From: a virus
Taxonomy: Duplodnaviria; Caudoviricetes
Direction: 5' to 3' (one strand)
Virus record (IMG/VR): IMGVR_UViG_3300032282_003292
Location: 1-56,001 of that record
Length of the DNA stretch: 56,001 nt
Under the pieces are notes generated by a model. That model saw nothing but the letters and a program-made list of their open reading frames with translations. It did not search any database and was not told the origin of the DNA. The position numbers and the translations under genes were made by a program. Shown here one piece after another: positions 24,901-44,080 of this stretch. Position 1 is the first letter of the stretch, and every line of letters begins with the position of its first letter.

Positions 24901-25518
24901 ATATGTGTTTCCACCGCCAAGAAGTACATCAAGAGAAACTGCATCTATAAAATATCCAATATCTCTTTTGCATTTAGTTTCTAAATTTGCTGGTGCTGGA
25001 GATGGAGGATTAGCAGATACGGTAGCATATGCAGTGTTTATAATATCTGCTCTATTTTTTTGAATTAAACGATATGAATCAAAATATCTAGATTTGTCAG
25101 TAGTTACTCCATCACCAGGGGGTATCCAATTATTACCCCACGTAGATTCGTTATATTCAATGGCAATTTGACCATAGGCACGATCAACAATTTCTTGATA
25201 ATTAGCTTCAATTAAATTAGACGCATCATAATAACGCTGAATTGGATTAACAATATTTACAGATCCTGGTCTATTATCAATATAATGATTACCAGGCATC
25301 AACATGATGCTGAATTGATCAAATCTATCGTTGCCCTTTCCTGGCAAATATGAATATCTTGCTACTTCAATAAAAGCTCTTTGAATAGTTTTAAAAGGTC
25401 TTAAGGGAGAATTTCCCCTATTATCAAGTTCATCTGTAGCGTTAAAATCATCTGGTGATACATATAGATATTTTCCAGTTTTACTTGAATAGAGATTATC
25501 AAGTCTTGTAAGAGACAT
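15964..25518 (-). CDS. giant virion structural/tail fibre protein (3184 aa)
   Basis: Conserved cyanomyovirus N-terminus (LYV.PDDFNATD...GNS..RPFKTIQRA..E.AR.SY), KCKRDIGY repeats, C-terminal LP..P..GD.IRFVD...GWWL motif; TATAAATA late promoter upstream. Confidence 0.85.
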   Translation of the reverse strand: MSLTRLDNLYSSKTGKYLYVSPDDFNATDELDNRGNSPLRPFKTIQRAFIEVARYSYLPGKGNDRFDQFSIMLMPGNHYIDNRPGSVNIVNPIQRYYDASNLIEANYQEIVDRAYGQIAIEYNESTWGNNWIPPGDGVTTDKSRYFDSYRLIQKNRADIINTAYATVSANPPSPAPANLETKCKRDIGYFIDAVSLDVLLGGGNTYTVKFLRNYFNSTGDDWIDASLEGEVSQSNAAFETARNEMRKAVTNQLTYKDTSITADSATGSNISVNSCANVRTFIDNLTTIVTTTLTTGNLSGIVEESAPPLGDGESICKRDIGYIVDAVISDLKSGGNSNSVQAARAYFGSNNLPLTNGLIGEVTQATFAFNAARDMMKKAVTNQLYSKDLTLQAGPSEYGGTGPIQPVSPSGNSLSCVDVQNTITTLIAIVTTALTKTTANDVVSYFNAITVTGDVPIFNYNKALEEWTDNSILDLSNPNNVLYKFNASTGGAIVPRGCSLIGYDLRRTVVRPLYVPDPADSTQPRTSVFNLTGGCYLWQFTIKDGDLSANSPLYDEVARVGKVYYQYNNSIQKAIPEYSHHKICIMEYADTEELDNYYEKVGRAFSRFQPEIDDGEFESLVQENRIVGPLSDTRRIESIKLIEVSGKTRAIVTTKIDHGYFIDQYIAILNTGLSDTLNGTFKVTALDAQNPRIFEYEVDATISEMGNNALVNNTTYYITNGLNSNAVSQAEIDSVESASPYVFNCSIRSTWGICGMWADGSKATGFKSMVVAQYTGVSLQKDDRAFIRYDEFTNTWNQAPLTSAFASVPYHTKGDSYWKDDWRNFHIRASDDSFIQCVSVFAVGFHDHFLMESGGDMSITNSNSNFGNTSLHAKGFKGFAFNQDKGGYITDIIPPKVVKETNQTKIQYYTLNIPASRGESNHTKLYLGVDTANDPNIKPAASVTGYRLGARNQEKIYVKLDTGTCYSTLTPTGFTVYKASLSTLDPGGLNSQYKRATLFTINTGNGNTDPHQFETGTPVRLVPRAKSGTNPNKKLIRLPKGFEPNQTYYVIAPGRTTQPYDFSGTSSFNGTAQTKLLLAATKENATAGIYIYSSETDAIDTNVEIEVHQYILDEVYDLHKYTCNFVGGASQIITTDTNHIFDVPNASITPQRVFFSVASDIQGSTLPSITGTGVIQTNRFYYVKYVAPNQFTVHNTYADAISGNALTFNGGGNFYVYANKRLSPLRFDPSYRDNTNTTGLWYLQVTDESSGGSPRSNSILTRFHDVNAYGPSANKIRTLDTWFNRVNDDRSDGDRVYRLRYVIPKYLETVRDPLNGFTIKLRTDEKRRLVPQRFVLTPIGNAPAVAQIENPAQPEERLGYTSTVLNQTYGVTSNYDPYLNPAIINSSQTASGISFSIQSARIVSVSQANRLELTVFDHNINLDGIRGENFVAVKISAPSGGDGTFVSNKDLSDSSNAITWSGTTNGTGNVQGYFVDGSNYYLLLKNVSRDGIKYDSSITTTFTQGSVTATLLTKPNSIGDSLGRDKSNRKDFLYRIDGANVYTVVPGDTVTIGANSYKITSVTDLGDIEDTFYIFDIEQIQRRISGQQDGIYYLTCVKGNISPYPTGTGVGTNFRNYKFSQPISQLYPIDYKNDPVWFKQIKSSYNDVPNTVSVADNYIHGLVYTDDSKRSETKEVVYELITQPPLNRNTFTKSEDLVTATINPSSGSTIIEAQVGNATSGAENRRIPISGNSDYPTEKRLYVELRRPSIARSGNHTFEYLGFGPGNYSTGFPLRQDVVLADAQNFYAQSKKEDGGVVFYTGLNSNGDLYIGNRKINAITGEETYLEQAGVVQSIDEDKGSLGGIVTTFPDPVTFNDRITVEGNATFNNPVEINVEPNEGVPLRIYSAVNSDDDQSLSRTNYPNNQDGDITLSKNRVNAAIFSISPRQQSQVNGQPYTFRTHFISSQGPTNISPDQTGKFSANQIIQYSNFYKPIPGDVLLKGKEVSLSGPLGWIYANYYTEIADGDIQNVSSDGIYVTITFVTGIKNVDKFISPGSQVRISGFTPHAPLNGTWTVLQTDYNSNFGFFKISIPTVPASGQLYNWLSAYKMEVSRSSWKEVGIIGSESIRTSTEIFGDYKLGINTLARATDDGYKTAFIEDTTAPRANLDVVGNTIISGKTTNIIVSGGVQQKTTTNLDNALVVGGNSASLNDTSIFRVSSTLPVDPYTGTLGRVSINASVEDLALDAAFSGKSNLFVRGNSFFGGPLKVIGDLTVSSKIDTTSASIVAFDTPTSITFAKNASTLQLANTTTQAQLINIGNSALSQSIVSGSNATYSILKIHENSQNSTVRIGTVPNDNNSYLSSVIVGGAFSNSNSLFNIKNRLLRVDGDIEVGSGFVSGSTGKITSFNRYFEFLSNSSSPSYVTIARGASTLSLGADSGQTSINNSLGVKGSAKIEGNIILNGGLGTGALNVKRGQFNTPVSSHLAGDADNLNIDVYRTVSIGNAVDTQGTGNWQSTNIYLPLDIVPFASDITLGSYILIDRSSTDASQSEIVRVIELTNLFNINDAEGIRIKVERGAEGTTVRTHPDKTPIKRLDKSANVSYITSPMGSNTAGAVSVLKTAEFGGSLNSGDFIRIDGTEIVKIESINQALSEIQSLNINDGGGNSAVTLFNVESTTGNTLVKGKIDSYNSVILHGSEVENSKYLKINNGQITVTQAVTNTVTGGTFTSAQITNGTTYTTGLTTNPQLSWSFGTLPTGYTIASYTICLENLSVSGTSGKPNILWMITEIPNTVTSFNANSTTVPFGSVIQRNYIGLPGTSGVNSIGYTSPQPPSTFIHNYRLSISAVLQGSGNIQTNNILTKILDFKYGSGTEVPAGGSNFVANSTIITNSYNTDTSTTTFSVDSATGKTNIYGNLNVGKNSSYNKLTVNSEFGHVTMNGGDLTIKDSSGSSNRLYLQNGTGNLTIYGNFLSTATEGTNRFNSSLLVNGGNLRVNRGDPWVAGAAAATGSYIRTDENTYKVIIGGNLGTSPPTRTSDDLFDNGTTRLQYYNHYSINPSGSIDFAGIAGYNTPSGGRRWDYINTLSGDGGTLKSNINYFVNPISTLYVKLPTNPINGDMIRFVDLSGNLKYDVKLIIRASTGVAIQADSSNTSAPNSINLALHNGGELIVNTPNAALGLIYAGANAEGQTIVPSEKIGWWLMEI

Positions 25519-25554: not shown

Positions 25555-25562
25555 TATTTATA
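25555..25562 (-). promoter_or_regulatory. T4-type late promoter TATAAATA
   Basis: Exact T4 late consensus 37 bp upstream of the giant structural gene. Confidence 0.8.
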
Positions 25563-27499: not shown

Positions 27500-27572
27500 A
27501 GCCCTCGACAAGACTTGAACTTGCGACATCAGCTTTACAAAAGCTGCGCTCTACCAGCTGAGCTACAAGGGC
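27500..27572 (-). tRNA. tRNA-Thr(TGT)
   Basis: Cloverleaf, CAGCT-TTTGTAA-AGCTG. Confidence 0.95.
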
Positions 27573-28087
27573 ATTCTAACAAATTCAAACCTATCATATT
27601 TAGATCCCCAAAGTTGATGTCCATGCTGAGCACAGAAACCACGATCCATAACATAGTAGTGAGTTGGGGTCAACTCAATTTCATTTTGAAGATAAGTTTC
27701 ACGACCATTCCATTCTACCATACAATTACATCCAGTAAGACCACCTTTAAATATCTCACGCTCTTGTGTTAAAATAATATCACAACCAGATTTCAATTCC
27801 AAATCTTTATAATTTAGAGTATATAAATTTTTAAAATTTACAAATTCTTGTGGATTTTTTAATTTATAATTTATAATTTTTATATAATTGTCTTCTTGAA
27901 TAGGTTGCAAAACAAATTGGCGATATGGAGTTTTTAAATCATAGTTATATGCTTGTTCTCCATAAAATAATCCGTTACCTATATTGATATGAGTAACTCT
28001 TATGTGTGCATATTTAGATGGGTGAGAAAATGCTTGATACTGATTTTCAAACTTGCCTTCAACTAATTTAAAGAAATATTCAATCAT
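27563..28087 (-). CDS. cpeT: CpeT/CpcT-family phycobilin lyase
   Basis: G.F.N..QA...P..YAHI, EQAY....PYRQ, GC.I, MDRG....G.Q.WGS. Confidence 0.9.
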   Translation of the reverse strand: MIEYFFKLVEGKFENQYQAFSHPSKYAHIRVTHINIGNGLFYGEQAYNYDLKTPYRQFVLQPIQEDNYIKIINYKLKNPQEFVNFKNLYTLNYKDLELKSGCDIILTQEREIFKGGLTGCNCMVEWNGRETYLQNEIELTPTHYYVMDRGFCAQHGHQLWGSKYDRFEFVRMPL

Positions 28088-28973: not shown

Positions 28974-30068
28974 CTAATTTAAATATATTTGCTTTCCTTT
29001 AATTGTCATATTTTCAACAGCTTTAAATTCTGCAGTTGATTTAGAAGAAATTACCATCTTTTTGGTTGATTCTATTTCAATTTGACCCACTGTAGAAGTT
29101 TTAATATCTGCATTTGCTTTTGTTTGCATAGAAACAGTGCCACCATCTGACGGAGAACCTACATCAAGAAGATAAGTTTCTTTCTGTTGTGTTTTATAGG
29201 GATCAATACCTTTAATTTTAACTGTTTTTTTGCCTTCAATTTCTTCTACGTAATTACCTTTTGTGGATAGAAAATAATTTTTTTTACCAGCAATTGAACA
29301 AGCACCAGCAATATTCAAATTATAATCTCCAGTAACACCAACAGTATAATTGCCATTAACAATATAATTGATACTTCCAGGTGTAGATATTTCTGTTACA
29401 GCTCCTGGTTTAGTTTGTTCTACTTTAAATTCTCCAGATCCTTTAGAATATTCCCCACCAGTTATTTTTTTATTAAAATTCATAGCAGTCAAATTTAAAT
29501 TTCCAGTAAAAATATTTAAATTTCCAGCTCCCGATCCAGAACTTATTTTAACTGCTTCTCCTGCTTCTAGTATTAAATTATTATTTGCTTTTATAGAAAC
29601 ATTATCTCCTTTTATACCAACTTCTCCACCTATAGCTTCTATAGCTATATCACCAAAAACAGCTAAAGAATATGCAGGAGTTTTTTCTTTGGTACTATTT
29701 CCTTTGTTGTCTTTTTTAGAAGTTTCTTTCTCATCATTACCTGAAACTTCAATAGCAACTGATCCTGTTTTTTGCAAAAATTCAGAAGAACTTATAATTG
29801 CTTTTCCACCACAGCCACCCAAGGGTTTTCCAGTAGCTAAAATCATATTTCCACTGGAATCAAAATGAAAAGCTGTTTGTCCATTAGTCAACATAAATCC
29901 AGACGAATCATCTTCGTTTGTATATGTAGCTAATGTCCATCCTTTATCTTTAAATACTACATTACAACTAGCAGGAGGAACACCAGGAGATGGTGGCGTT
30001 CCTCCTTGAGGTTTTGCTGCTGGAGTTCCTTTATTTTTTCCTGTTGCTGGTTTAGTCATTACGGACAA
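28974..30068 (-). CDS. gp5 C-terminal-like (beta-helix needle) baseplate hub protein
   Basis: V.G.Y...V.G.Y 8-residue repeats, IKGKQIYLN terminus; immediately downstream of gp5 N-domain gene. Confidence 0.65.
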   Translation of the reverse strand: MSVMTKPATGKNKGTPAAKPQGGTPPSPGVPPASCNVVFKDKGWTLATYTNEDDSSGFMLTNGQTAFHFDSSGNMILATGKPLGGCGGKAIISSSEFLQKTGSVAIEVSGNDEKETSKKDNKGNSTKEKTPAYSLAVFGDIAIEAIGGEVGIKGDNVSIKANNNLILEAGEAVKISSGSGAGNLNIFTGNLNLTAMNFNKKITGGEYSKGSGEFKVEQTKPGAVTEISTPGSINYIVNGNYTVGVTGDYNLNIAGACSIAGKKNYFLSTKGNYVEEIEGKKTVKIKGIDPYKTQQKETYLLDVGSPSDGGTVSMQTKANADIKTSTVGQIEIESTKKMVISSKSTAEFKAVENMTIKGKQIYLN

Positions 30069-33000
30069 TCAATATATTTACCTGTACCAATCTTAGCGTA
30101 TCCTTTTGCTTCCAAATCTTTCGAATCTAAACAGCTTAAACTTGCTAAAAATTTTGCTCCCATTCCACCGCCACCCATAATTACAACCGATGGCAACTTA
30201 TTATATTTAACTGTTCTATCCAAAATATTTATGCCCTTAACAAAACCGTCTTCAATTATAGCTGTTGCTATAGTAGGATCTCCATTAATATAAACAGTTG
30301 GTTCTGAAGTATAATTTTGTCCTGGTCTTATCATAGTAAAAGAATCTATAATACAATTCAAATTTGTAGGCACATTTTTTTTATAATTTAATCCTGTTCT
30401 AGTAATTCTTATTTCGGAAACATATCCTTTATCATCAAGTAATGGAATAGCTGCTGCTCCATATCCATCTCCAGTAATAATAACTTCTGGTTTAACTACA
30501 TATGGGCATCCTTTATCATCAATTTTTATACTTATAATTTTTCCATCTTCGTCTGTTAAAGCAGTGGCTATAGGAGATTTTAAACAAGGTTCAACTGGTT
30601 TTTTATCTTTATCAGCAAATGTACCTTCTATAATAACATCAGCAAATGCATTTGTTTTGTCAATAGAAAAAGTTACAGTTTCATTATTTTCAATTGCAGT
30701 ATCTTCTTCAATACCAATTTGAACTATTGCTTGATTATTTTTAATAACAAATTGACCATATAATGAATTCAAAATAAAATCAGAAGAAGTTATATTAGCT
30801 CCATACAATCTATAAGTTAATATAGTATCATCCGAAACATTTTCTGTTGTAATAGTGTAAATTATAGTTTCTCCTTCTTTGTAAGAAAGTTTATCTGTAG
30901 AAATGGAATATCTTTTATCTAAAACATTTACTACATTTTGCTCAGGAAAAACTTGATCTGCATTTATTACTACATTCACATAAACATTTGTATCCACTAA
31001 AGAAAATTTTAAAATTTTTGAATAAATTTCTATAATATTATCTTGATTAATTTGAACACTTACCTTAGCTTGATTAGATGTAATTGTAACTGTTCCGCTT
31101 AATACACCACCAAAAATATCACTTTGAGTAATATTTTCCCCAGATAAAGTATAATTTAATATTGTGCCATCAGAAACATTTGTTGTAGTAATAGTATAAA
31201 CAATAGTTTCTCCTTCATTTACAGAAACTTTATCTGCATTTACATTATAAGTTGGAGATGTAGAAATTGTTTGACTAATTACAACAGTTTTACTAGCATT
31301 AGTGTCATCTATGCTAAAAGTTAAACTTTCGTCATCTGTATTTCCATCATTATTAGTTGCTATTTGAATCGTAACAGTGGAACTATTAGAAGATATTACA
31401 AAAGATCCAGTCAAAGATCCACCAACAATATCGGAATTAGTAATATTAATACCAGATAAGGTATAGTTTAATACTGTACCATCGGAAACATTTGTAGTTA
31501 TTATATTAAATACTACACTATCTCCTTCCAAAACTTGTTCTTTATTTGAGGTAACATTGTAAGTTGGGAGTTCAATTATTGGAGAATTTGGAGATGAACT
31601 TCCAGAAATTTCCGTCAAAGAAATATTAGGAGTATTAATAATTGGAGGATTTTCTGCATCCACAACATTATTTTCAATGTTATCTTCAATGTTATCTTTT
31701 ATAGTACATCTTAAATAATTTGTAGTTTCAAACACCACATAATGCCCATCAGGTGTTGATGCTTCATTCAATTCAACTTCAAATATTTCATTACCTTCTA
31801 TTAAATTATCAATAAAAGTATTAAATTCTAATGTTTTGCTAGATTCTCCAGGAGCAAAAGCAATAATACCACTTGTTTCTAATGGTTCATAATCAAGATT
31901 AAGAGTTGCTCCTATATTAGTATTGCCTTCATTTATTTTATATCTAAGACTACTTGCAACATCTATAGATCCAGATCTTTTAATTGTAAATACAGCTGTC
32001 TCCCCTTCATAAACTTCTATATCAGATGAAGAATAATTTATACTTCCAAATGTAGTTCCATTAAATCTATCCTCATCAGTAGCAATATTATCTGTATTAT
32101 CTGGTAATGTATTTGGATTATCAGGTGGTTCATATACTCCCCCAACAAATATTATATCGGTAGGCAACTGCGATGGATATTTTTTAGCATCATTACATAT
32201 ACCACTACTATAATCTAAATTTCCGTCTTCAATTGTTTTAATTAATTTATCAAGATCATCTTCATTATCTCCAGATGTAGCACAATCAGTGCATGTAATT
32301 TGAATTTTTTCGCATTGTGCAGAACCACTACAACTAATACCAAGTAAATCCATTATTTTTTTAAGAGCGGTTCCAAGAATGTTTAATGGAGATGCTATTA
32401 CACTCAATAACATTTCAACACCACCTAGTATATCATTAATTAAAGTATCAATATAACCTAATATTTGATTTAATATACCATTTACAAGTTGATCTACCAA
32501 ACATGTAGCTGCACTAAAAGCATTCTGTATATAACCAAGCAATAAATTAGTTAGCCATTGTGCTAATCGATCTGTAAGATCTTCCATCTTACAACCAAGC
32601 TCTTTAAGTATATTATCAAGCCATGTTTGTATGCCTTTGATTCTAGACTTTCTTTTTTTTACTCCAGGATGACCTCTACTTTCGTTAATTTGTTTAACAA
32701 CACGATCATATTCTTCTAACGCAGCTTTAGCAGAAGCAGTATCTCCATTTGCTTCTGCAATAGCCAATACTTCTTTAGCTCCTTCTAAAGCATTTTTTTC
32801 TTCTGTAGTTAATGGCTTATTGATATCGTCAGGAATTATAGAAGTATCTTTTGTATATAATGTAGCATTAATTAATTTTGTGGTAGCCTCTTTCATTAAA
32901 CTAATAATTTCTCCTTTAGCTCTAGCCATAAGACTTCTAATTAGTCTAACAGCTCGATTGATATGATATCTTCCCACTGATATTTGATCCTGCAAATACC

Positions 33001-33757
33001 CAGTAGCTTTACTGACATAAAAATCTCCAAGTTGTCCACCAGATTGTTGATTTGCTCGAAGCATATCTCCAATAATATGAGTCAACGAAGATTTTAAATT
33101 TTTTTCAGTTCCACAATTTGGATTAGCAACAACTACACAAAGTTTTCCTCCAGTGGGATTTGTTTCGGAATTTTCCCCAAAGGCTGCCATTAATGCTGGG
33201 GGCCAGCCACCTTCTTCTCCTGCTCTGCTAGATGCAATCGGATCTCCGCCTAAAATATTAGTTCCTTCTTCATATCCAGGACCGTTATCAGCAGATGCTT
33301 TTCCTTTAGATTCTTTTTGTGGTAAATCTGTTGCTGGATTTATTTCAGATGCATACCTCGTAAAAGATTTACATGTACCTGAAGGATTTGGGTCTTCATT
33401 CATTATAGTTGTAGATCCAGGAACATGCCCAACGGATCCCATTATAATTGGTTTTTGTTTATCATTATCTAAATAAAAACCAATTACCCAATCACCTTGA
33501 TCTAAATTTACAGAAGCTCCTGTACTATTTGAACTACTTCTAGGAGTTGTTACTGGCATCATAGTAGATGCCCATGGTAGATCTTTAGTTGGCATTGCAT
33601 CGCAATTTTTTAAATGCTGACCTACAATTCTTACTTTATATCTACCCGCTTTTTTTGGATCTCCATTTCTTTTTGTTTCTACTTGCCCAATCCACCAATT
33701 AAAACCATCTGATCCTATTTGATTTAATGGAAATAGAGATGCTAATGTTTGATCCAT
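30059..33757 (-). CDS. gp5-like baseplate hub protein (OB-fold) with Calx-beta/Ig-like repeats
   Basis: IG.DGF.WWIGQVE...R.KVRI.G.H...LPWA...G..VIGF.LD...Q.P.IMG; Calx-beta signature. Confidence 0.85.
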   Translation of the reverse strand: MDQTLASLFPLNQIGSDGFNWWIGQVETKRNGDPKKAGRYKVRIVGQHLKNCDAMPTKDLPWASTMMPVTTPRSSSNSTGASVNLDQGDWVIGFYLDNDKQKPIIMGSVGHVPGSTTIMNEDPNPSGTCKSFTRYASEINPATDLPQKESKGKASADNGPGYEEGTNILGGDPIASSRAGEEGGWPPALMAAFGENSETNPTGGKLCVVVANPNCGTEKNLKSSLTHIIGDMLRANQQSGGQLGDFYVSKATGYLQDQISVGRYHINRAVRLIRSLMARAKGEIISLMKEATTKLINATLYTKDTSIIPDDINKPLTTEEKNALEGAKEVLAIAEANGDTASAKAALEEYDRVVKQINESRGHPGVKKRKSRIKGIQTWLDNILKELGCKMEDLTDRLAQWLTNLLLGYIQNAFSAATCLVDQLVNGILNQILGYIDTLINDILGGVEMLLSVIASPLNILGTALKKIMDLLGISCSGSAQCEKIQITCTDCATSGDNEDDLDKLIKTIEDGNLDYSSGICNDAKKYPSQLPTDIIFVGGVYEPPDNPNTLPDNTDNIATDEDRFNGTTFGSINYSSSDIEVYEGETAVFTIKRSGSIDVASSLRYKINEGNTNIGATLNLDYEPLETSGIIAFAPGESSKTLEFNTFIDNLIEGNEIFEVELNEASTPDGHYVVFETTNYLRCTIKDNIEDNIENNVVDAENPPIINTPNISLTEISGSSSPNSPIIELPTYNVTSNKEQVLEGDSVVFNIITTNVSDGTVLNYTLSGINITNSDIVGGSLTGSFVISSNSSTVTIQIATNNDGNTDDESLTFSIDDTNASKTVVISQTISTSPTYNVNADKVSVNEGETIVYTITTTNVSDGTILNYTLSGENITQSDIFGGVLSGTVTITSNQAKVSVQINQDNIIEIYSKILKFSLVDTNVYVNVVINADQVFPEQNVVNVLDKRYSISTDKLSYKEGETIIYTITTENVSDDTILTYRLYGANITSSDFILNSLYGQFVIKNNQAIVQIGIEEDTAIENNETVTFSIDKTNAFADVIIEGTFADKDKKPVEPCLKSPIATALTDEDGKIISIKIDDKGCPYVVKPEVIITGDGYGAAAIPLLDDKGYVSEIRITRTGLNYKKNVPTNLNCIIDSFTMIRPGQNYTSEPTVYINGDPTIATAIIEDGFVKGINILDRTVKYNKLPSVVIMGGGGMGAKFLASLSCLDSKDLEAKGYAKIGTGKYIDCP

Positions 33758-33780: not shown

Positions 33781-33787
33781 TATTTAT
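33781..33787 (-). promoter_or_regulatory. late promoter ATAAATA
   Basis: 24 bp upstream of gp5-like gene. Confidence 0.55.
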
Positions 33788-35196
33788 CTAACATTCGAAA
33801 CAGTTTTTCCATAAGAATCTCGTATTAAAGTTAAAAATGTAAATGTTTTTTTAGATTTAGGCATGAATACATTGTTTACAGATTTAATTAAATATACTCC
33901 GCTATGTGTTTCGTCATATGGTTGTTGTGATCTATTTGCAGTTGGAATTTGATTGGGTATTCTGATTTCAATTTTATCACCAGCAACTAAAGATGGATTG
34001 CCTGGAATTTTTATATTTACTTGTTGATTGACCAAGGAATTTATTCTTGATATTGATTGAGCCATGAAATATTTTTGAAAATCTTGATAGGGAGCAGAAG
34101 AAGTTGAATTAATTCCTTTTCTGTCATTAGTTTCTGCTGAAGCTATAGTTGCTTCATTAAACCATAATTCATGATCAAGAACCACACTCATTATTCTAGT
34201 AGGATATTTAGATAGCTCACGTTGACCCTGAGGTAATTTTTCTTGCTTTCCTAAATGAGCCATGTTGTCATAACTATTTGCTAATGAATAAGTATATTCT
34301 TCATAAGATCCTGTACTGTGATTGTAAAAACAAATTAGTGAAGAAAATGCTCCTGTTCGTAGTTTACTTAAAATATCAATTTCTTCCACGAAATCAATGT
34401 CCAAAATTTTATACGCTGGATTACCACCAACACTAATATTTTCTTGAGTGTAAATAGCTACAGGTGGAGTACCATTAAATTTACTAGTAGTAGAACAAAG
34501 ACTATCAATTGATCTAAAATTAAATCCATTTTTATTTTCATAAAATAAATATCCTCCAGTTCCCATCAATTTATTTTCAGAAGAATTTATTAATGAAGAA
34601 GCAGAATTGGATTCTGTTTTATTTAAATTTAGATTAGAATTGGTTGTCTGTTGATTGGTGCTATCATTCGGCACCGCTTTGTTTTTTATAGAATCTATAA
34701 TTGAAAATGGAGTTCTTTTTCCAGGATTATATTTTATATCGAATTTTGTTTTATCATAGTTAAAATCTTTATTTGTTTTTATATTATCTTTCAACATTTG
34801 GCTAATTATAGTTTCTGCCTTTCCACTTAATGTTTTTGGTATTCTTATTCCTTCATTCAATAATGCTTCCAAAGACATTAAACCTAATGTATATTTTTGA
34901 AATCTGTCAGCGGTGAATCTATTATAAATTTTATACACTCTAAATTCATATCTATGCTTTTTATCAAATGAATCTTGCAATTCAATTTTAACTTTCTCAA
35001 ATCCTTGAATAGAAGAAACCAAATTATAACCAGTATCAACTAAATCTAAAGTAGCAGATATAGTTGGCATTAATATATCTTCAAAATAATCAAACCTAAC
35101 AATTAAATCCATAATATTTTTGTAGCCAGTGTCACCTATTAGTTGAATTTGAGCATCAATTAAATAAAAATTACTAGAAAATTGTATTTGTGCCAT
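33784..35196 (-). CDS. baseplate hub (gp27-like) protein
   Basis: YFEDI..P.ISA.L..VD, GYLFYE...GF.F.SID.L, IPG...L.AGD.I, SGVYLI..V...LIRDSYG; position next to gp5; start likely MAQIQF. Confidence 0.7.
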   Translation of the reverse strand: MAQIQFSSNFYLIDAQIQLIGDTGYKNIMDLIVRFDYFEDILMPTISATLDLVDTGYNLVSSIQGFEKVKIELQDSFDKKHRYEFRVYKIYNRFTADRFQKYTLGLMSLEALLNEGIRIPKTLSGKAETIISQMLKDNIKTNKDFNYDKTKFDIKYNPGKRTPFSIIDSIKNKAVPNDSTNQQTTNSNLNLNKTESNSASSLINSSENKLMGTGGYLFYENKNGFNFRSIDSLCSTTSKFNGTPPVAIYTQENISVGGNPAYKILDIDFVEEIDILSKLRTGAFSSLICFYNHSTGSYEEYTYSLANSYDNMAHLGKQEKLPQGQRELSKYPTRIMSVVLDHELWFNEATIASAETNDRKGINSTSSAPYQDFQKYFMAQSISRINSLVNQQVNIKIPGNPSLVAGDKIEIRIPNQIPTANRSQQPYDETHSGVYLIKSVNNVFMPKSKKTFTFLTLIRDSYGKTVSNVR

Positions 35197-35200
35197 GAGT

Positions 35201-37756
35201 TTATGCGTTAATAAAATCTGAATAATGACCGCTATTTGATAAAGGATTGAGCCCACGACTTGTATTATCAGTTGCAGGCAAAGCAGAAGAAGATGTTTTA
35301 GTTTGTTGACTTGAAGGTAAAGTTAATGCAACTATATTGGGTACACCAGAAATAAAATTATCAGTAGCTATATCACCAGAAGAAGTTCTAGCAGAATTCC
35401 TAGGATTAAAAGAAACTTTATCGTCTGGTTTACTTATAGAATCGGTTTGCATATATTGTTCAAATGCTTGTAATATTTTTGGTGCCTGAACAGTATTAGA
35501 TTTCATATCAATTTTTTGATTGTTTGAATTATAAAAATCAAAACCATGTGTTGTTTTATATGCCTGCACTTTACCGTAGCCAGGAACATTAAAATATTTT
35601 TTTACATTGGGTTGAATAATATTGTCATAACTAATAAGTTGTTGACCAAGATCAACTGGAGCTATTGGGGTAGTGGGTGTTTGTTGTACTGGGGCTAAAG
35701 ATCCAACTTGAGTTCCTATAGGCATAACTCTTTGCAGAAATTTATGTTTATTAGCAGTAGAAGCAGTCGGCAAAGGTGCTCCAGATATATGGTCAGTGAA
35801 TGGTATGCTGTTAGCACTTGTTGGATTATAATAAGTTTCAGATAAAGCTAATGCATTAGCTTCTGCTTCCGATTTCCCAGACGCTATAGCATTTTGTTTT
35901 ATTTTAGCTGGATCTAATCCACCTCCTCTAATCGCAGCGTTTAAAGAAGTAAGAGCTTGTTTTTCACTAATACCAGGAAGTTTTGGTATTGATTGACTAT
36001 ACTGACCAGTGGCCATTAAAATATCACTTATAGTAACTTCTGATGCTTTTTTTCCAGTAACCCCCCATGCTTCTGGAGTTACTAATCCTTGTTTTATTTC
36101 TCTTTGTCTATTCAAAATAGAATTTAAAACATGAGCAGTTCCTTCTTGTGAAGTTCCTGCTTCAGCATTTAACATTTTACCCAACAAAATGGTGTCCTGT
36201 TGACTCATTCCTTGTAGACTAACTGGAGATAAATCAGGATTGTCACCTGGAGGTGGAGGAGGATTAGTAGGAATTTCATCAACTTTTTTACCAAAGCTTT
36301 CGAGAAGTTTAGAAAACCCTTCAGTAAGTTTAGCTATGATATCTTTTTTGCCAAGAGAATCTTCTTCTGGTTTTTTGATATTTGTCAATCCAGATTTTGC
36401 TTTACGTGTTAGCGATGCAGGTAATCCAAAAGAATCTGCAATTGGTTTTGTTATTTTTTCTATTTCTGGAGAAATATTTTCCCCAGCAGAACCCATTGAT
36501 TTCATCATTTGTGTAGTTGTTGCTAATATAGTTCCGCCAGTAGCCATCATTGGAAGAGACATAGCATCAACAAGTGGTTGAGCTATTTTAGAACCAGAAG
36601 TTGTTCCTCCACCAGCAATTCCCATCATATTAGTAATACCAAATCCCATTCTTCCTCCAACAGGAGAATAACCAGTTCCTCTTTCGTATGGTTTTGGTCT
36701 TCTAATTCCATCAACGGCACTTGGCTTTCCTTCTGTGTATCTATTTTTCAAAGGCACAACCATCTCATCTCCATGAAGCTTTGCCAGATATCCAGTATCT
36801 GGTCCAGAAATTATTCCACCTCTTTCCGCTTGAGGATAACCATAAGCTTCCATCTGTTTCATTTCTGCTTCTCTAGCAGATCCAACACCAATATTTTGAA
36901 TATTAGTTATAGAAGTAGTTGGTGTTATAGTTTCTGTTGTATTAGATTCATTAACTTTTGTTGATAAATTATCTGGAGTTTCTGATGCAGCAACATCTCT
37001 TTGCTGAGCTAGTTTTTGTTTTTGTTCATAATCTTTTGATGTATCAATAGTTTGTTTTTGGAATTGAGTTTGATTGTTAATAGCATTTATTAATGCGTCA
37101 AGTTTATCTTCTATAGTATTATTTCTAACTTTTAATTGCTCTGCTATATCTGCTTGAGCAACAGAAGATCTCATAATACCAGAAGAAACTTGCTCACTAT
37201 TTTTTCCAAGTTTTTCTGCTGTTTTATTTAATGAATCTATTAATATATTAAATGTACTTAATATTTCTTCTCTTGATATTCTGCTTGTTCTTCTAGTAGT
37301 TGCTTTTTGTATTTTTTTAGCAGTACTAGGAATTTTTTTATCTACTGCCTTTACTGAAGGATTTCCATCAGTATAATCAAATAATTTTCTAAAACTTTTT
37401 ACCTTTTTGGGTTTTACTTCAACATTTATAAATTTTCTTTTTAATAAAGCTCCAATAGCTTTGGGATTGTTTTTTATTCTATTTGCTAATTTTATATTTT
37501 TACCAATTCCTTTTACTTTAGAAATTTTTTCTCCAATTTTTTCTCCGCCAAATTCATGCTTTAAAGCTTTCTTGAAAAAATGTCCTTCTTTTATTCCAAG
37601 TTCTTCTAAAGTTACTCCTTGTTCTAATGCTTTCTTTTCAGCATAATTTCTTTCATCTTCTGCCAGTTGTCTTGCAATAAGAACTTTTTGCACTAGATTT
37701 CCTACGGGATTTTTATATCCTCTAGTATCTTGTGGGGTTTCTAATCCAGCAGTCAT
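35201..37756 (-). CDS. gp29/tape-measure-like virion protein with SleB-type cell wall hydrolase domain
   Basis: Coiled-coil N-half; L.K...AEAG...V...ILNR...I..I....GQYS...YY...HKF Hydrolase_2 motif. Confidence 0.7.
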   Translation of the reverse strand: MTAGLETPQDTRGYKNPVGNLVQKVLIARQLAEDERNYAEKKALEQGVTLEELGIKEGHFFKKALKHEFGGEKIGEKISKVKGIGKNIKLANRIKNNPKAIGALLKRKFINVEVKPKKVKSFRKLFDYTDGNPSVKAVDKKIPSTAKKIQKATTRRTSRISREEILSTFNILIDSLNKTAEKLGKNSEQVSSGIMRSSVAQADIAEQLKVRNNTIEDKLDALINAINNQTQFQKQTIDTSKDYEQKQKLAQQRDVAASETPDNLSTKVNESNTTETITPTTSITNIQNIGVGSAREAEMKQMEAYGYPQAERGGIISGPDTGYLAKLHGDEMVVPLKNRYTEGKPSAVDGIRRPKPYERGTGYSPVGGRMGFGITNMMGIAGGGTTSGSKIAQPLVDAMSLPMMATGGTILATTTQMMKSMGSAGENISPEIEKITKPIADSFGLPASLTRKAKSGLTNIKKPEEDSLGKKDIIAKLTEGFSKLLESFGKKVDEIPTNPPPPPGDNPDLSPVSLQGMSQQDTILLGKMLNAEAGTSQEGTAHVLNSILNRQREIKQGLVTPEAWGVTGKKASEVTISDILMATGQYSQSIPKLPGISEKQALTSLNAAIRGGGLDPAKIKQNAIASGKSEAEANALALSETYYNPTSANSIPFTDHISGAPLPTASTANKHKFLQRVMPIGTQVGSLAPVQQTPTTPIAPVDLGQQLISYDNIIQPNVKKYFNVPGYGKVQAYKTTHGFDFYNSNNQKIDMKSNTVQAPKILQAFEQYMQTDSISKPDDKVSFNPRNSARTSSGDIATDNFISGVPNIVALTLPSSQQTKTSSSALPATDNTSRGLNPLSNSGHYSDFINA

Positions 37757-37777: not shown

Positions 37778-37784
37778 TATTTAG
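37778..37784 (-). promoter_or_regulatory. late promoter CTAAATA
   Basis: 22 bp upstream of 37756 start. Confidence 0.55.
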
Positions 37785-40700
37785 TTAGCACCAAGACGAA
37801 GCATAAGTAAATTTCTAGCAGAAGAATTAAGTTCAGTAGTGGATCTCCAAGAACCATCTCCGATAGATTCAAAACTAGTTGAAGTAGAACCATTAATTGT
37901 TGGAGCTGATGCTTGATTAATAATTAAAAATTTTGTATCTTCCTTTTTATCAGGTCCTTGTAGAGTTTGAAATTTAGTTTTTTGAGATGGAGGGTGTAAA
38001 TTTAATCCAACTGCAATAGATCTTTCAAGAGGAGCAGTTAATGCATTTAATTGATCAGCAGAAACTTTATTAGATTTTACATTTTTTTGTAATTCAGGAG
38101 ACATATTACCCAATTCAAATATACCTCCACCTCTATTACTCAAAGCAAGATCTCTAAATCCTCTATCATATGCTCCATAATTTTTAGCAAAATAAGCTTC
38201 AACAGGATTCATTTCAGACTTAGAAGTAATAACTCCTCTACCCTTTCCCTCACCAGATTCAATAGAAGCATCCATATGCACTTCTAAAATTTCCCACCCT
38301 TCTTTTTCTTTTTGTTTGTACCAATCTTTTTGTTTATTCCAACCAGAATCATCATCAGTAAACATTGAATCTGGATCCATATATTGAATATTTGCAGAAG
38401 GGTATTTGGATTTTAAATTATCATAAGCATTTTTTGCCAACATTCTTACAAGAGATTTTTCTTCTGGAGCACCACCACCAGAAGCATGACCAGGAACAAT
38501 TAAATAACCCTTATTTCCTACCCCAGAAGTTTGACCAAAATCTTGATTGCTCACGACACCTTGTTTACCAAGACCTTTTGCAGTTGGTAATGATTTATTT
38601 GCAGTTGTTTGTTGAGCTTGGTATGCTTGTTGCCTTGTTTTTTCAATTTCACCTTGAGGACCTTTTCTAAGTTCTTTTAAAATATAATCACCAATTTCTC
38701 TTGCTTTCGAATGTGCTTGGTGTGATCCTGGTTTAAAAAAATCTAAACTTGTATGAGCACCAGTACCACTTCCAACTTGTGGTCTAGTTCTAGGATCAGC
38801 AAATTCTTGTTCTGTTGCCATTCTACCAAGATCTTGACCAACTGATACTTGATCTCCTTGATTAACTTTTATTTCTCCTTGCGGGAAATGTGCATATAAC
38901 ATATCAACTTGAGATCCATCAACAGGATTTGTGGATCTTATTACAACATAATTACCATACCCAGCACCCTTCCTATTATCCCCACCCGTTACATTTGGAT
39001 TATATTGATGATCAATTTCAACCACAGTACCAGCAAAAATTGCTCTATTTTGAGTGCCTTTTAAAGTAAAATCAATTCCTGCTTGCCCAGGATCTTGACT
39101 ACCACCAAGCAATACAAACGGTTCAGCACCTACTTGTCCTGGGGGACCAGGGGGTAATAAAGGATTTCTAAAATTCAAAAATTTTGTTTTAATATCATCA
39201 ATTATTTTTAAAAATTTTCCTTCGGGATCTATCATTTTATAAAGCATCTCAGAAAATATAGTTTCATTAGGAGTATTCATAAGATCTTTTTCTTCCAAAG
39301 ATAATTCATCAGTAGAAGTTTTTGTTTTGAATTGTTTAAATGTAGAAGATAATCCTGACATATTTCCACCAACAGGAGTAGTAACAACTACATTTGGAAC
39401 ATCATATATTTTTGTTAAAGGAGATGCCACTTGTTTTATCATTGGCGCTATAGAACTTGCTTCTGGACCAGCATTTTTCATGTAATTGAGAGTTGCTGAT
39501 AATAAGATTCCTCCAATAGGATCAACTGGTGTTGTACGATTCTTAGGAATAACCGCTTCGGTGCCATGAAGCATAGATATTCCTGGTTTAGTAAGACCAC
39601 CAACTTCATAATCTCCTTCTTTTATTCCTAATGCATCGGCAAAGAAGGCTGCTATGTGTTCATTACCATTTCCAGTAGTAATATCACTTAAATTAGACTC
39701 AATATGTTTTGTGTATGCTGTAGTATCTAAATCTCTAAGCACATCAATCGCAGCAAATCCCCATCCAGCTACTGGAATCGCACTACCAAAAGATAAAAAT
39801 CCTCCTTTAATATCACCCATAGCCATACGAGCAAGACCTTCCCCAAGACCATAAACAGTAGAAATTCCAGGAATTAATTTACCAGCTAGTTTAACAGATA
39901 GTTTTTCTGCACCTTCTTTTCCTAATTTTTTAACTAATGCTTCCTGAACCTTACGACTTTTTAAGATTTTAATTAAAATATTATCTGTTTGAGTAGAAAA
40001 TGCTTTGGCTATTGGTTTATCTACAGAAGAAGCAACTGATTTTTCTACTCCAGGTAATGCAATATGTTCCCATCCCTTTACTACTCCTGTTCTTGCTACT
40101 GTTGTTGCTACCTTTGGAGCTAATCTTTGAGAAGCTTTATTAATTATTGATCTAGAAATTTTAGATGCTATTTTTGATGGTAGTTTAGCAATTTTATTAA
40201 TTCCAAATAAAACTGATTTTAATCTAGCTGGTATATGTTTTTCTATCAAACGCCACAAAAATTTACCAACATTAGTTTTAAAGAATTTTCTCAGTTTACT
40301 AATAAAACCAGAACCATTAGAAGAATTATTTAAATTTCTAGTATCAATTGGAGTTTCTAATCCAGAAACTTTTCTTGATCTTTCCAATGCAGTTTCATTT
40401 CTTTTAAATTCTTGTTTATCATATACTTCTTTTGCTAAGTGATTTTGATTTAAATATGCATCAGTTAAAGCATCAATTTTGTTCGCTAAAATTTGATCCT
40501 GTTCTTCTACTCTTTCAATTGCTTTAAAAGATAACTCTATAGAATTCCTTAATAAATTATTTTGTTCTTGTAAAGAAGCATCTATAGAATTTAATTTATT
40601 TTGTATCTGTGTTATTCCAGTAGTCAAAAATTTATATATTTTACTATTACTTACTGAAGATGATTTGTTAGTTTTTTCTTGTTGTGGTATAACTTCCCTA

Positions 40701-42403
40701 CCAGTTTTTTTATTGATGTGATTTGCCAAAGCTTCTCGCAATCCTTCTGGCAAATCATCAAGAACATCCTCATTGATTTCTTCGGTAGTTTTTTCTTGAG
40801 CAATATCATTCAATAATTCATCAAGCCCTTCAGGTTCTTCTTCGTTTTCATCATCTTGAGCATCAGTTTCATAAATTTTTTTAATTCTTTCTTCTAGTCT
40901 TTTTGCTTCTTCTTCTTTAAATTTTTCTAGTTTTTCTTGGTCTTTTCTAAGAAGTTCATCAATAGCATCCATGATGCCATCAGAAGTTTCTTCTAAAGCA
41001 TCTTCTGCTTTATGAATAATATTATCAAAAATTTCTTTTTGATCATCTACAAATTTTTCTCCAGGTTTATATACAGAAGTTTCTGATCCCATGTAGACTT
41101 CCATTTCAAACTTAGGATCTATCCTAGGAATTTTAAGATAAGGATAATTTCCTCCTTCCCACGCTCCTGGAGTTAGTTCTCTAATCTTATCGAGAATTTT
41201 TTCTCTATGCTCAGAAATTTCTTTGTATGTTAATCCTAAAGTATCCTGAAGCCAATCTAATATTTCTGCTTGCTTTGCTCCTTTAGGAAACGGAGATTTG
41301 CCTGCAAAATATATTGCGTGATCTAAAATAGATTCAAAGTCTAATTCCCAAACTCCTGATTGCCCCTGAATATATCGTGCAGCAGGAACGTTAATATCGT
41401 CCAGAGGAATTACTGCCTCCGTTCCATGTAGTATTATCGGATATCCAGATTCAGGACCAGAGAATACTCCTCCTTCTGATGCTTGTGGAATAGTACCTTT
41501 GAAACTATACTTTTTATTAATAGAAGAAGCAATTCCAGAAGTTTTAGATGCAATAGATGTTTTAGGTACAATAGTTCGTATTTTTTTAGGATTTTTTGTA
41601 TTAATTTTGAGTGTTTTATCTAAAGCACTATAAAAATTTCCAACATCAGTATAGTCATTTTCAACATGATGAGCTATGATTTCTAAATTATCAAAATATT
41701 CTCTTTCTTTTTTATCGTCACCTTCAATAGCTTCATATCCTCGTAATATAATATTGAAATCAACTCCTTTCTTTTTACAAATAACTTTTATAGCATTTAT
41801 TAATATTTTTTTATATACTTTATATGAATTAGTATCAGTAAATAAATGTGCAATTAATCCCAATGATCCTTCAGTTGGATCATTGTTATTTCCAAAAAAG
41901 GTTTCAAAAAAAGTTATTGCATAACCTTTACGTGCTTGTCCGTAATCAAGAATTTTAACTTGATAATCATTAGTAATAAAAATATTACCAGCATGAAGAT
42001 CTCGTTGAGCAATATTTTTCCTATGTAAAGCTCCAATTGCTTCTACAATTTTTCTAAAAATATAATCAGCAAAAACAGGATCATTTTTTATTTTCTTCAA
42101 CCATTCCGAAAGAGGTTTGCCTTCAAATTTTTGCATCGTAGCAAATCCTTTTCCAGATCCAAGTAACTTAGGAGCAACTCCTATGCCACTAGTTTCTTGA
42201 AGCATTTGTATTTCATTTTCTAGGCTCGGTAACCCTCGTGAGTGAGATACTTTTACAGCATTACCCTTAGAAGAATATACTGTGCCAAAAGCTCCTTGAC
42301 CAAGTTTTTTATCTCCAAATATACTAAAAGCCGTATTGTAGCCAAAAAGTTTCCCAGCTAATCTAATTCTTTTTGATAGTTTAAACTGTGTGGAAGATTT
42401 CAT
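37781..42403 (-). CDS. gp29/tape-measure-like virion protein: N-terminal protein kinase, M23-like and Amidase_3 domains
   Basis: GQGAFG/AVK/E/RDLHAGN/DYG kinase motifs; GYGNYV..YAH..GSGTGAH M23-like; PGH..E..EVH..FELG amidase. Confidence 0.8.
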   Translation of the reverse strand: MKSSTQFKLSKRIRLAGKLFGYNTAFSIFGDKKLGQGAFGTVYSSKGNAVKVSHSRGLPSLENEIQMLQETSGIGVAPKLLGSGKGFATMQKFEGKPLSEWLKKIKNDPVFADYIFRKIVEAIGALHRKNIAQRDLHAGNIFITNDYQVKILDYGQARKGYAITFFETFFGNNNDPTEGSLGLIAHLFTDTNSYKVYKKILINAIKVICKKKGVDFNIILRGYEAIEGDDKKEREYFDNLEIIAHHVENDYTDVGNFYSALDKTLKINTKNPKKIRTIVPKTSIASKTSGIASSINKKYSFKGTIPQASEGGVFSGPESGYPIILHGTEAVIPLDDINVPAARYIQGQSGVWELDFESILDHAIYFAGKSPFPKGAKQAEILDWLQDTLGLTYKEISEHREKILDKIRELTPGAWEGGNYPYLKIPRIDPKFEMEVYMGSETSVYKPGEKFVDDQKEIFDNIIHKAEDALEETSDGIMDAIDELLRKDQEKLEKFKEEEAKRLEERIKKIYETDAQDDENEEEPEGLDELLNDIAQEKTTEEINEDVLDDLPEGLREALANHINKKTGREVIPQQEKTNKSSSVSNSKIYKFLTTGITQIQNKLNSIDASLQEQNNLLRNSIELSFKAIERVEEQDQILANKIDALTDAYLNQNHLAKEVYDKQEFKRNETALERSRKVSGLETPIDTRNLNNSSNGSGFISKLRKFFKTNVGKFLWRLIEKHIPARLKSVLFGINKIAKLPSKIASKISRSIINKASQRLAPKVATTVARTGVVKGWEHIALPGVEKSVASSVDKPIAKAFSTQTDNILIKILKSRKVQEALVKKLGKEGAEKLSVKLAGKLIPGISTVYGLGEGLARMAMGDIKGGFLSFGSAIPVAGWGFAAIDVLRDLDTTAYTKHIESNLSDITTGNGNEHIAAFFADALGIKEGDYEVGGLTKPGISMLHGTEAVIPKNRTTPVDPIGGILLSATLNYMKNAGPEASSIAPMIKQVASPLTKIYDVPNVVVTTPVGGNMSGLSSTFKQFKTKTSTDELSLEEKDLMNTPNETIFSEMLYKMIDPEGKFLKIIDDIKTKFLNFRNPLLPPGPPGQVGAEPFVLLGGSQDPGQAGIDFTLKGTQNRAIFAGTVVEIDHQYNPNVTGGDNRKGAGYGNYVVIRSTNPVDGSQVDMLYAHFPQGEIKVNQGDQVSVGQDLGRMATEQEFADPRTRPQVGSGTGAHTSLDFFKPGSHQAHSKAREIGDYILKELRKGPQGEIEKTRQQAYQAQQTTANKSLPTAKGLGKQGVVSNQDFGQTSGVGNKGYLIVPGHASGGGAPEEKSLVRMLAKNAYDNLKSKYPSANIQYMDPDSMFTDDDSGWNKQKDWYKQKEKEGWEILEVHMDASIESGEGKGRGVITSKSEMNPVEAYFAKNYGAYDRGFRDLALSNRGGGIFELGNMSPELQKNVKSNKVSADQLNALTAPLERSIAVGLNLHPPSQKTKFQTLQGPDKKEDTKFLIINQASAPTINGSTSTSFESIGDGSWRSTTELNSSARNLLMLRLGAN

Positions 42404-42581: not shown

Positions 42582-43295
42582 CTATGCGAAAAAATTCTGA
42601 AGCCCCTCAATAGTATACGATGATTTTATATTAGTGTTTGGATTAACAACTTCAAACTCATGTTTTAATCTAGGCATTGTATCATAAAATTTTTGTACTT
42701 GTTCAAATTGTTTTATAGTTAATGTGTCAAGAAATTCCAAAAATTCTTTTTTTGTTGTTGTACTTGAATCGTATACTACATCTTTATCAAAAATTTGTTC
42801 CATATGATCAGCAATAAAATCAAAAACTTCAGTAGTTTTCAAATCTTTTCCTAAAAATTCGGCTTCTATAAATCTTTTCATACTAGGATATTTCATAATA
42901 ATACCAGTATCATCAGATAACATAATTTTATTTGTATGCCCCTCTGGTTTATAAATTTGAACATCATTTATATTAATATCAACATCAACTTGAGTAGTGT
43001 TATCATCTTGACACGTAACTTTCATATTGATAATTTCTCCCACAGAAGCAGCTCTAATTTTCAAAAACAAATATTCTAAATCAAATGAAGGAAGATCATC
43101 AACCTTAATTCTAGTAATAACACAATTTTTTAATAGCTCTTTGACTGCACTAGTAATTTGAGCATCATCTTCAGATTCCAATGCAAGTAAAAGAATTTTT
43201 TCTTCTTTAACGAGAAAAGGTCTATATTTAATATCCTTTCCAGAAGAAGGCAATTTCAATTCAAGAGAAGGAATTCCAATTTTAGGTAAAGTCAT
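42582..43295 (-). CDS. gp26-like baseplate hub assembly protein
   Basis: LPS.G..IKYRPFLVKEEKILL, FD.EYLFL.IRA.SVGE, IEGLQNFF. Confidence 0.9.
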   Translation of the reverse strand: MTLPKIGIPSLELKLPSSGKDIKYRPFLVKEEKILLLALESEDDAQITSAVKELLKNCVITRIKVDDLPSFDLEYLFLKIRAASVGEIINMKVTCQDDNTTQVDVDININDVQIYKPEGHTNKIMLSDDTGIIMKYPSMKRFIEAEFLGKDLKTTEVFDFIADHMEQIFDKDVVYDSSTTTKKEFLEFLDTLTIKQFEQVQKFYDTMPRLKHEFEVVNPNTNIKSSYTIEGLQNFFA

Positions 43296-44053: not shown

Positions 44054-44080
44054 CTAAATATCTTTGAAGACCTATTTATA
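44054..44080. promoter_or_regulatory. face-to-face late promoters: CTAAATA (+, 44054-44060) and TATAAATA (-, 44073-44080)
   Basis: 31-bp spacer between divergent gp54 and gp4 contains both boxes. Confidence 0.7.

Follow-up and report, generated by a model that had tools for sequence, protein, structure and literature searches.

The locus considered here raises the question of whether a tail protein of a T4-like cyanophage brings a protein kinase into the host cell along with the viral DNA. The window, i.e. the whole stretch of 56,001 nucleotides (nt) analysed, is a 56-kb IMG/VR virus fragment (IMGVR_UViG_3300032282_003292) with a completeness of 29% as estimated by CheckV. Its source is a T4-like cyanophage, a virus of marine or freshwater cyanobacteria; the gp26 of the window shares 70% identity with that of Synechococcus phage S-CAM1 and 64–68% identity with those of Sf-FR1 and S-CAM3. 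The gene in question is an open reading frame (ORF) at 37781-42403 on the minus strand, which exists as the initial annotation had claimed, is open over 1540 codons and encodes a protein of 1540 amino acids (aa), designated protein A. The best explanation of the whole, held at a probability of roughly 0.5, is that protein A is a tail-hub protein with an exchangeable kinase (Table 1), which is packaged in the particle and ejected into the host.

Residues 32–170 of protein A match the Pfam family Pkinase (PF00069) with 43.3 bits against a curated cut-off of 31.7, and the N-lobe through the DFG motif aligns to B-Raf in a phmmer search of PDB (E 1.9e-9). The catalytic set of protein kinases comprises a Gly-rich loop, the VAIK lysine, the αC glutamate, the catalytic aspartate and asparagine, and the DFG aspartate. 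The motifs listed in the initial annotation were all located as described, namely GQGAFG (residues 35–40), AVK with K51, ENE with E64, QRDLHAGN (133–140) and DYG (153–155), and residues G35, G37, G40, K51, E64, D135, N140, D153 and G155 are invariant in 22 aligned proteins. Q133 occupies the position of the HRD histidine, while an invariant histidine, H137, stands after the catalytic aspartate at the position where Ser/Thr kinases usually have lysine. An AlphaFold2 (AF2) model of residues 1–300, built with 21 relatives, has a mean predicted local distance difference test (pLDDT) score of 85.6 and an ordered bilobal kinase fold over residues 5–275. The top solved-structure matches of this model in Foldseek are protein kinases (E about 1e-9), and a structure search returned 284 chains at Z ≥ 8, the matches listed among them all being kinases. 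Judged by its residues, the kinase looks intact, being catalytically complete and compact.

The N-terminal 305 residues, which comprise the kinase and its linker, are an exchangeable module on a conserved scaffold, as the initial annotation had suspected of a swappable N-terminus. A search with residues 330–1090 retrieved 44 proteins, 17 with a Pkinase domain and 27 without. Two of the latter (P0212 and P0213) are 65–68% identical to protein A over residues 336–1540 and begin with an unrelated N-terminus of 150 aa; kinase-less orthologues align only from residue 336, while residues 306–335, which are 74% identical to residues 314–344 of protein B of Sf-FR1, travel with the kinase module. P0212, P0213 and P0214-P0227 have between them at least three further N-terminal modules, each about 100–250 residues long and without a Pfam match; these unannotated modules may be other cargo domains. 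One of the alternative N-termini is of the 'MIPxKAIKK...AYGVFPQT' type, present also in protein A of Sf-FR1 (Sf-FR1_A), and another is of the 'MNFTTPPPEG' type, which resembles the N-termini of protein A in S-CAM1 and S-CAM3. A quick maximum-likelihood tree was built from the core (residues 560–1090; 40 rows, 23 with and 17 without the kinase; branch support from the Shimodaira-Hasegawa-like approximate likelihood ratio test (SH-aLRT) only; midpoint root), and on it the presence of the kinase needs six changes, five of which are forced by well-supported branches. The gene call of the kinase-less P0228, which begins directly behind the kinase module, may be truncated, and one change fewer would then be needed.

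This exchange bears on the possibility that the kinase acts in the producing cell, phosphorylating protein A itself (e.g. in the linker at residues 273–305) or tail proteins and thereby controlling assembly, muralytic silence or loading. Co-expression with genes of hub assembly and the coupling to gp51 speak for such a role, as do the disordered Ser/Thr-rich linker directly behind the kinase and the certain availability of ATP at that time. However, the 65–68% identical orthologues carry another N-terminal module instead of the kinase, so the scaffold can be assembled without it, and none of the 33 columns of the linker is invariant (0/33). A role in the producing cell is thus regarded as unlikely.

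The fold invites another reading, in which the domain would be a RIO-like ATPase or ATP sensor and the binding of cytoplasmic ATP would trigger release, channel opening or DNA entry. When aligned with representative structures by VIA-align, the model scores highest with RIO2 (Z 14.5) and RIO1 (Z 14.3), followed by about 50 ordinary kinases (Z 12–13.5) and Bud32 (12.2), the lead of the RIO structures of about 1 Z unit being within the tie range of the tool. The model also has an N-terminal helix and a short C-lobe without an activation segment, with helices at residues 161–265 after the DFG motif, and Bud32 is matched weakly in NCBIfam. The 'compact Bud32/RIO-sized fold' of the initial annotation is a fair description, although the RIO lead is treated as a tie and protein A has no match to RIO1 (PF01163) in Pfam at E ≤ 1; PF01163 is among the precomputed entries of one relative, P0021. 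The sequence is nearer to classical kinases, as indicated by the Pkinase and B-Raf matches above, and the existence of kinase-less orthologues implies that the kinase domain is not part of the core ejection step. An ATPase or sensor is hence quite unlikely.

The substrate of the kinase might instead be a small molecule, a lipid or a wall precursor, following the logic of APH, ChoK or Kdo kinases, so that the envelope would be weakened or metabolism changed. Matches to ABC1 (E 2.3e-4) and APH (E 0.043) in Pfam and to Kdo kinase (E 9e-4) in NCBIfam point in this direction, as do the APH/ChoK-like annotations of published cyanophage virion kinases in PMC10665884 and the proposal, in PMC5512222, that zeta-toxin-like kinases of polyvalent proteins act on wall precursors. 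These matches are nevertheless below the curated cut-offs and weaker than that to Pkinase, and the top solved structures are protein kinases, which leaves a non-protein substrate very unlikely.

A false fusion, produced by assembly or gene calling, and a kinase in decay can both be dismissed despite the metagenomic origin and low completeness of the fragment, since proteins of this build are found again in 21 further clusters from several sources, five IMG/VR loci and two further representatives, and the kinase is the most conserved region; the initial annotation, which had raised the artefact itself, was right to treat the fusion as a real gene. The search with residues 1–300, limited to proteins of 847–2695 aa, gave 22 proteins including protein A, all with Pkinase (22/22) and 18 also with M23, and the gene order of the window is repeated in both long IMG/VR loci (L003 and L004). 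In a comparison of 21 relatives, from which the 850-aa P0022 was left out, the kinase is the best-conserved part of protein A, with a mean pairwise identity of 65.2% and 73 of 272 columns invariant, against 35–56.2% and at most 19/159 invariant columns for all other regions. When 1.84 billion representatives were searched exhaustively with HMMER, 2533 matched at E ≤ 0.001 and only seven at E ≤ 1e-30, all of the latter being 850–1622 aa long with an N-terminal kinase; the next best match scored 87 bits. No isolate carrying the gene was found in a phage collection of 50,697 records. More distant N-terminal kinases are fused to M23 and Phage_lysozyme in P0075 (1013 aa, 29% identity) and to a SleB-like Hydrolase_2 in P0022 (44% identity), which indicates that the design of a kinase plus a wall hydrolase is wider than the clade of protein A; a search for their surroundings in IMG/VR gave no usable locus for either. 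A separate start at a downstream Met had also been considered; residues 91 and 432 have no Met codon between them, and an ATG-started kinase-less form keeping the conserved residues 306–432 is thus not available.

The scaffold, comprising the core and the C-terminal tail, is inferred to place protein A in the tail lumen or hub. The core is common to protein A of S-CAM1, S-CAM3 and Sf-FR1 (BLASTP, residues 336–1084), the N-termini of which differ. It consists, in order, of a small conserved domain, an acidic helical stretch (residues 451–560, 39 D/E in 110 residues), a helical, Q/N/L-rich and coiled-coil-like stretch (561–699), a basic amphipathic stretch (700–844), a Gly-rich hydrophobic stretch (845–931) and a second motif, LHGTEAVIP (935–953); the acidic and coiled-coil segments had been recognized in the initial annotation. 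The tail has the pattern PPSQ..F.SLQG.D..DTKFLI.NQ ... R.L.M.RL and is kept whatever enzyme modules precede it, and a similar pattern of strands and a terminal helix also ends protein A of Sf-FR1, S-CAM1, S-CAM3 and S-PM2. This C-terminal tail is a candidate anchor in the tail or hub.

Between the core and the tail lie two domains that had been described as peptidoglycan hydrolases. For the first, the M23-like assignment stands by profile and fold: Pfam M23 is matched at residues 1107–1200 (nt 38804-39085) with 32.1 bits against a cut-off of 28.7, and in the AF2 model of residues 1091–1540 (pLDDT 76) this part resembles EnpA (6smk, E 2.7e-5), lysostaphin and LytM in Foldseek. In M23 enzymes such as LytM and lysostaphin, zinc is bound by both named residues of HxxxD, a histidine and an aspartate, and by the second histidine of HxH. 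As aligned by MAFFT with canonical relatives, protein A has Q1107 for the histidine of HxxxD and S1219 for the second histidine of HxH, while D1111, H1172 and H1217 are kept, so that two of the three canonical ligands are missing and 'two hydrolase domains' was an overstatement. Judged from these residues, the M23 domain probably does no more than bind peptidoglycan or assist the amidase. Among the 22 rows, 10 are degenerate, 8 canonical and 4 without M23; Sf-FR1 and S-H9-1 keep the canonical HxxxD and HxH.

The second domain has an Amidase_3 fold, with PlyPSA (1xov, E 7.1e-6) and 4m6i, 4rn7, 1jwq and 5emi (template modelling score normalised by target (TMt) 0.54–0.62) among its matches, which include Rv3717, CwlV, AmiC2 of Nostoc and CD27L. 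The active site of Amidase_3 enzymes consists of a His/Glu/His zinc site and a catalytic Glu, and H1306, E1314/E1315, H1376 and E1430, the candidates for these roles, stand in this order and are kept in the 11 relatives with the same variant. The fold claimed for this domain was recovered, but no Pfam profile match was: protein A has no match to PF01520 at E ≤ 1, four relatives with PF01520 carry a different amidase variant, and residues 1091–1540 have no match in PDB by phmmer at E ≤ 1. As far as the model goes, the domain is likely a working cell-wall enzyme. An LytM fold with an incomplete zinc site beside an Amidase_3 fold recalls the degenerate LytM proteins EnvC and NlpD, which activate Amidase_3 enzymes, and the AmiB-EnvC structure 8c0j is among the fold matches of residues 1091–1540; unlike EnvC/NlpD, protein A has both domains in one chain. 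Canonical and degenerate M23 domains combine freely with two main amidase variants in the 22 relatives, and a dedicated activator role of the M23 domain is therefore only a guess.

The kinase is probably delivered into the host with the DNA as part of the virion, as suggested by the putative late operon, by virion proteins encoded at this genomic position in S-SCSM1 and by cyanophage kinases, several of them reported from virions, as the nearest viral folds. In the proposed mechanism, protein A would be made late and built into the tail, and at infection it would be expelled ahead of the DNA with its C-terminus first. The amidase would open the wall and the Gly-rich hydrophobic stretch would aid the crossing of the inner membrane, while the kinase, last out, would reach the cytoplasm, where ATP is available, and phosphorylate host proteins for take-over or for disarming defences before any phage gene is transcribed. 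In S-SCSM1 (Kyanoviridae), ORF213 and ORF214 lie between gp51 and a hub protein and both have muralytic annotations; PMC9602691 reports both in purified virions. Similarly, two 'endolysins' of S-CREM2 (1565 and 1456 aa), situated beside the central spike, are represented by 73 and 71 peptides in the virion proteome according to PMC10665884; they gave no match in the phage-collection search, which was the only comparison made between them and proteins A or B.

Several results weigh against this explanation. The virion evidence comes by analogy from proteins in the same genomic position in S-SCSM1, which show no significant BLAST similarity to protein A or B; BLASTP of ORF213 and ORF214 against proteins A and B gave one weak hit only (E 6e-4, to protein B of S-CAM1). 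The T4-type tube lumen is about 4 nm, and a folded kinase of 270 residues would be about as wide, so that storage partly unfolded or outside the tube would be needed. That the N-terminus reaches the cytoplasm is an assumption, and the periplasm is without ATP. RIO kinases, to which the fold is closest, work mainly as ATPases. The remaining points concern the tape measure: hhalign of the family alignment against 15 T4-type gp29 sequences gave a probability of 0.3%; no tape-measure model of NCBIfam matches proteins A and B, protein A of S-CAM1 (S-CAM1_A) or S-PM2 p209; the best named cluster for residues 306–1090 in ESM Atlas, 'tail tape measure C-terminal domain' (0.76), is below the noise level; and the hydrophobic stretch is weak, with a maximum Kyte-Doolittle value of 1.42 compared with 2.20 in T4 gp29.

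The designation of protein A as a tape-measure/gp29-like protein in the initial annotation thus found no backing in homology and draws on position and architecture. The gp29 tape-measure family (PF25671) is matched nowhere in the window, protein A included, nor in a 171-kb relative of 88% completeness; no tape-measure PHROG matches protein A, and protein A of S-CAM1 and of S-CAM3 (S-CAM3_A) touches phrog_4200 only weakly (E about 0.005). A complex prediction for the gp48 of the window with residues 1441–1540 gave 0.00 in both runs and decides neither way. Counted in favour of the role are the position in the hub module, the absence of a canonical gp29 from the 88%-complete relative, the segments paralogous between proteins A and B, and an order of stretches loosely recalling T4 gp29, for which coiled-coil, proline-rich and transmembrane parts are described, and an expulsion to form an inner-membrane channel is proposed, in bioRxiv 10.64898/2026.03.06.709160. 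The setting of tail length by protein length was considered and rejected, as S-SCSM1 has a tail of 173 nm with ORFs of 950 and 1131 aa and S-CREM2 one of ~418 nm with ORFs of 1565 and 1456 aa (lengths derived from coordinates), which follow no consistent rule. That protein A is a tail-lumen or hub protein leaving the particle at infection is considered likely; its identification as the tape measure itself is tentative, with the balance leaning somewhat to the other side.

Phage kinases acting on host proteins are known, and that of T7 is made from an early gene once the phage has entered the cell; unlike T7 gp0.7, protein A is encoded in a structural, apparently late operon. T7 gp0.7 may serve as a model for a possible role of the protein A kinase, as it phosphorylates many host proteins and disarms defences broadly according to a recent report (Nature 2026, PMC13645617). 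Closer in setting are the kinase-like proteins reported from virions of S-CRM01, S-TIM5, S-CBWM1 (APH/ChoK/Rio2-like) and S-CREM2 (ORF14), which PMC10665884 describes as found with purified particles and proposes to enter the host. Cyanophage kinases are also the nearest viral folds: an 821-aa entry (template modelling score normalised by query (TMq) 0.56) and a protein of S-H34 (0.54) come first, and the RIO-like, APH-like and ChoK-like kinases of S-CBWM1 and that of S-TIM5 are further near matches. In sequence the similarity is marginal, only the APH-like protein of S-CBWM1 being matched (30% over 129 residues, E 1e-6). These virion kinases differ in being stand-alone and encoded outside the hub module (checked in S-CBWM1), whereas the protein A kinase is covalently attached to a tail-module protein.

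The polyvalent proteins (Iyer et al. 2017, PMC5512222) are, as that paper describes them, phage polypeptides with kinase domains that are predicted to be injected, and combine kinases of the Ser/Thr/Tyr type with peptidoglycan-acting and further domains in one polypeptide with shuffled modules. Protein A likewise has kinase, M23 and amidase in one chain, and its N- and C-terminal modules are exchanged among relatives. As far as described there, the polyvalent kinases have lost the C-terminal subdomain and come from (pro)phages of Verrucomicrobia-Chlamydia and Bacteroidetes, whereas that of protein A keeps a compact helical C-lobe and is found in a T4-like cyanophage between gp51 and gp5. Pfam revealed neither a MuF domain nor any other known packaging domain in protein A. 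T4 Alt, an ADP-ribosyltransferase, is alike in being, by its annotation, a particle-packaged enzyme that accompanies the DNA into the host and modifies proteins there, but it is capsid-internal and stand-alone and uses another chemistry. Tape measures such as those of TM4 and T4 (gp29) are also long tail-module proteins with coiled-coil and hydrophobic parts and wall-degrading domains, muralytic motifs being known e.g. in mycobacteriophage TM4 according to PMC1796659; unlike them, protein A has no detectable homology to T4 gp29. Stand-alone virion kinases and kinase-bearing polyvalent proteins are thus already in print, while literature searches, with supplementary proteome tables (e.g. Sullivan et al. 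2010) outside their reach, gave no description of a protein kinase on a tape-measure or hub protein.

The gene lies in a string that reads gp3, gp26, gp51, protein A, protein B, a 490-aa tail protein, gp5 and a further hub/lysozyme protein; gp26, gp51 and the hub genes were found where the initial annotation had placed them, on either side of protein A and with the ATGA coupling (Table 1). The gp51 equivalents of S-CAM3, S-PM2 and S-SCSM1 are annotated as baseplate hub assembly catalysts. The motif TATAAATA, the T4-type late-promoter motif, shows no enrichment in the window overall (6 seen vs 11.55 expected). From the coupling to gp51 and the occurrence of TATAAATA upstream of gp3, the protein A gene looks like part of a putative late operon. 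Other genes of the window are phoH, thymidylate synthase, gp32 and giant tail-fibre genes, and the host-like psbA, cpeT-like and 2OG-Fe(II) (2-oxoglutarate) oxygenase genes confirm a cyanobacterial host.

Table 1. Features of protein A and of other parts of the window, with positions in the window (all on the minus strand).
Feature	Residues of protein A	Position (nt)	Strand	Basis or remark
Protein-kinase domain, RIO/Bud32-sized	1-272	41588-42403	(-)	Pfam, AF2, structural alignment
Linker, basic, Ser/Thr-rich, predicted disordered	273-305	41489-41587	(-)	pLDDT <50 at 276-300
First motif copy, GG..SGP..GY...LHGxExVIPL	306-335	41399-41488	(-)	regular expression, BLASTP
Conserved core, PHROG 11440	336-1090	39134-41398	(-)	phrog_11440, E 3e-46
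M23/LytM-fold domain, degenerate	1091-1235	38699-39133	(-)	Pfam M23, Foldseek, MAFFT
Amidase_3-fold domain	1296-1470	37994-38518	(-)	Foldseek, motif positions
Conserved C-terminal tail	1471-1540	37784-37993	(-)	alignment
TATAAATA motif		44073-44080	(-)	21 nt upstream of the gp3-like ORF that starts the gene string
gp26 baseplate hub		42582-43295	(-)	phrog_150, E 2e-73
gp51-like ORF, 54 aa		42400-42564	(-)	stop overlaps protein A start as ATGA
Protein B, 851 aa, PHROG 10925		35201-37756	(-)	partly paralogous to protein A
Tail/hub protein, 490 aa, PHROG 350		33784-35256	(-)	follows protein B
gp5		30059-33757	(-)	phrog_1922, E 2.2e-257
psbA		55457-55990	(-)	cut by window end
cpeT-like antenna-protein gene		27563-28087	(-)	
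2OG-Fe(II) oxygenase gene		8789-9430	(-)	

Proteins A and B are partial paralogues, as both contain the motif GG..SGP..GY...LHGxExVxPL (at residue 313 in B and 311 in A) and share a helical stretch (residues 150–272 in B vs 574–696 in A). In S-H9-1 (L002, 3853-9161), both proteins in this slot start with a B-type N-terminus (MAAGNVGYTDTRSF...); the first gene matches protein B over residues 483–705, while the second has an M23-plus-amidase end matching residues 1101–1469 of protein A, so that each slot protein combines A-type with B-type parts and is neither a simple A nor a simple B. With the GTG start listed for it, the 490-aa tail protein would begin 56 nt before protein B ends; the true start is probably further downstream. 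Elsewhere in the window, an ORF of 3184 aa (15964-25518, minus strand) matches the tail-fibre PHROGs phrog_4527 and phrog_529, and a copy of TATAAATA lies just upstream of its start, at 25555-25562.

The earlier reading of the locus is corrected in three respects, i.e. protein A has no homology to gp29, its M23 domain is degenerate and its kinase module is exchangeable; the muralytic equipment now appears as a single amidase, likely active, and a neighbouring LytM domain of the zinc-less kind. More speculatively, and with less confidence than a tail-hub location, the N-terminus of protein A can be viewed as a cargo slot like that of the spike effectors of type VI secretion systems (T6SS), the kinase being one of at least four payloads moved by recombination. 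If this is true, the particles of T4-like cyanophages are pre-loaded with a kinase that modifies the host ahead of phage gene expression, the contractile tail delivers DNA together with an exchangeable enzyme, and the other N-terminal modules are injected effectors as well; in any case, these modules are candidate carriers of new injected functions. Nearly identical scaffolds that differ in having or lacking the kinase occur as natural pairs and offer a practical handle for comparison. A kinase carried by an ejected tail protein would be active from time zero, ahead of both phage transcription and the response of host defences. Among the viruses that infect the primary producers of ocean and lake, T4-like cyanophages rank with the most abundant, and a pre-loaded effector would thus bear on how the infection of picocyanobacteria starts.

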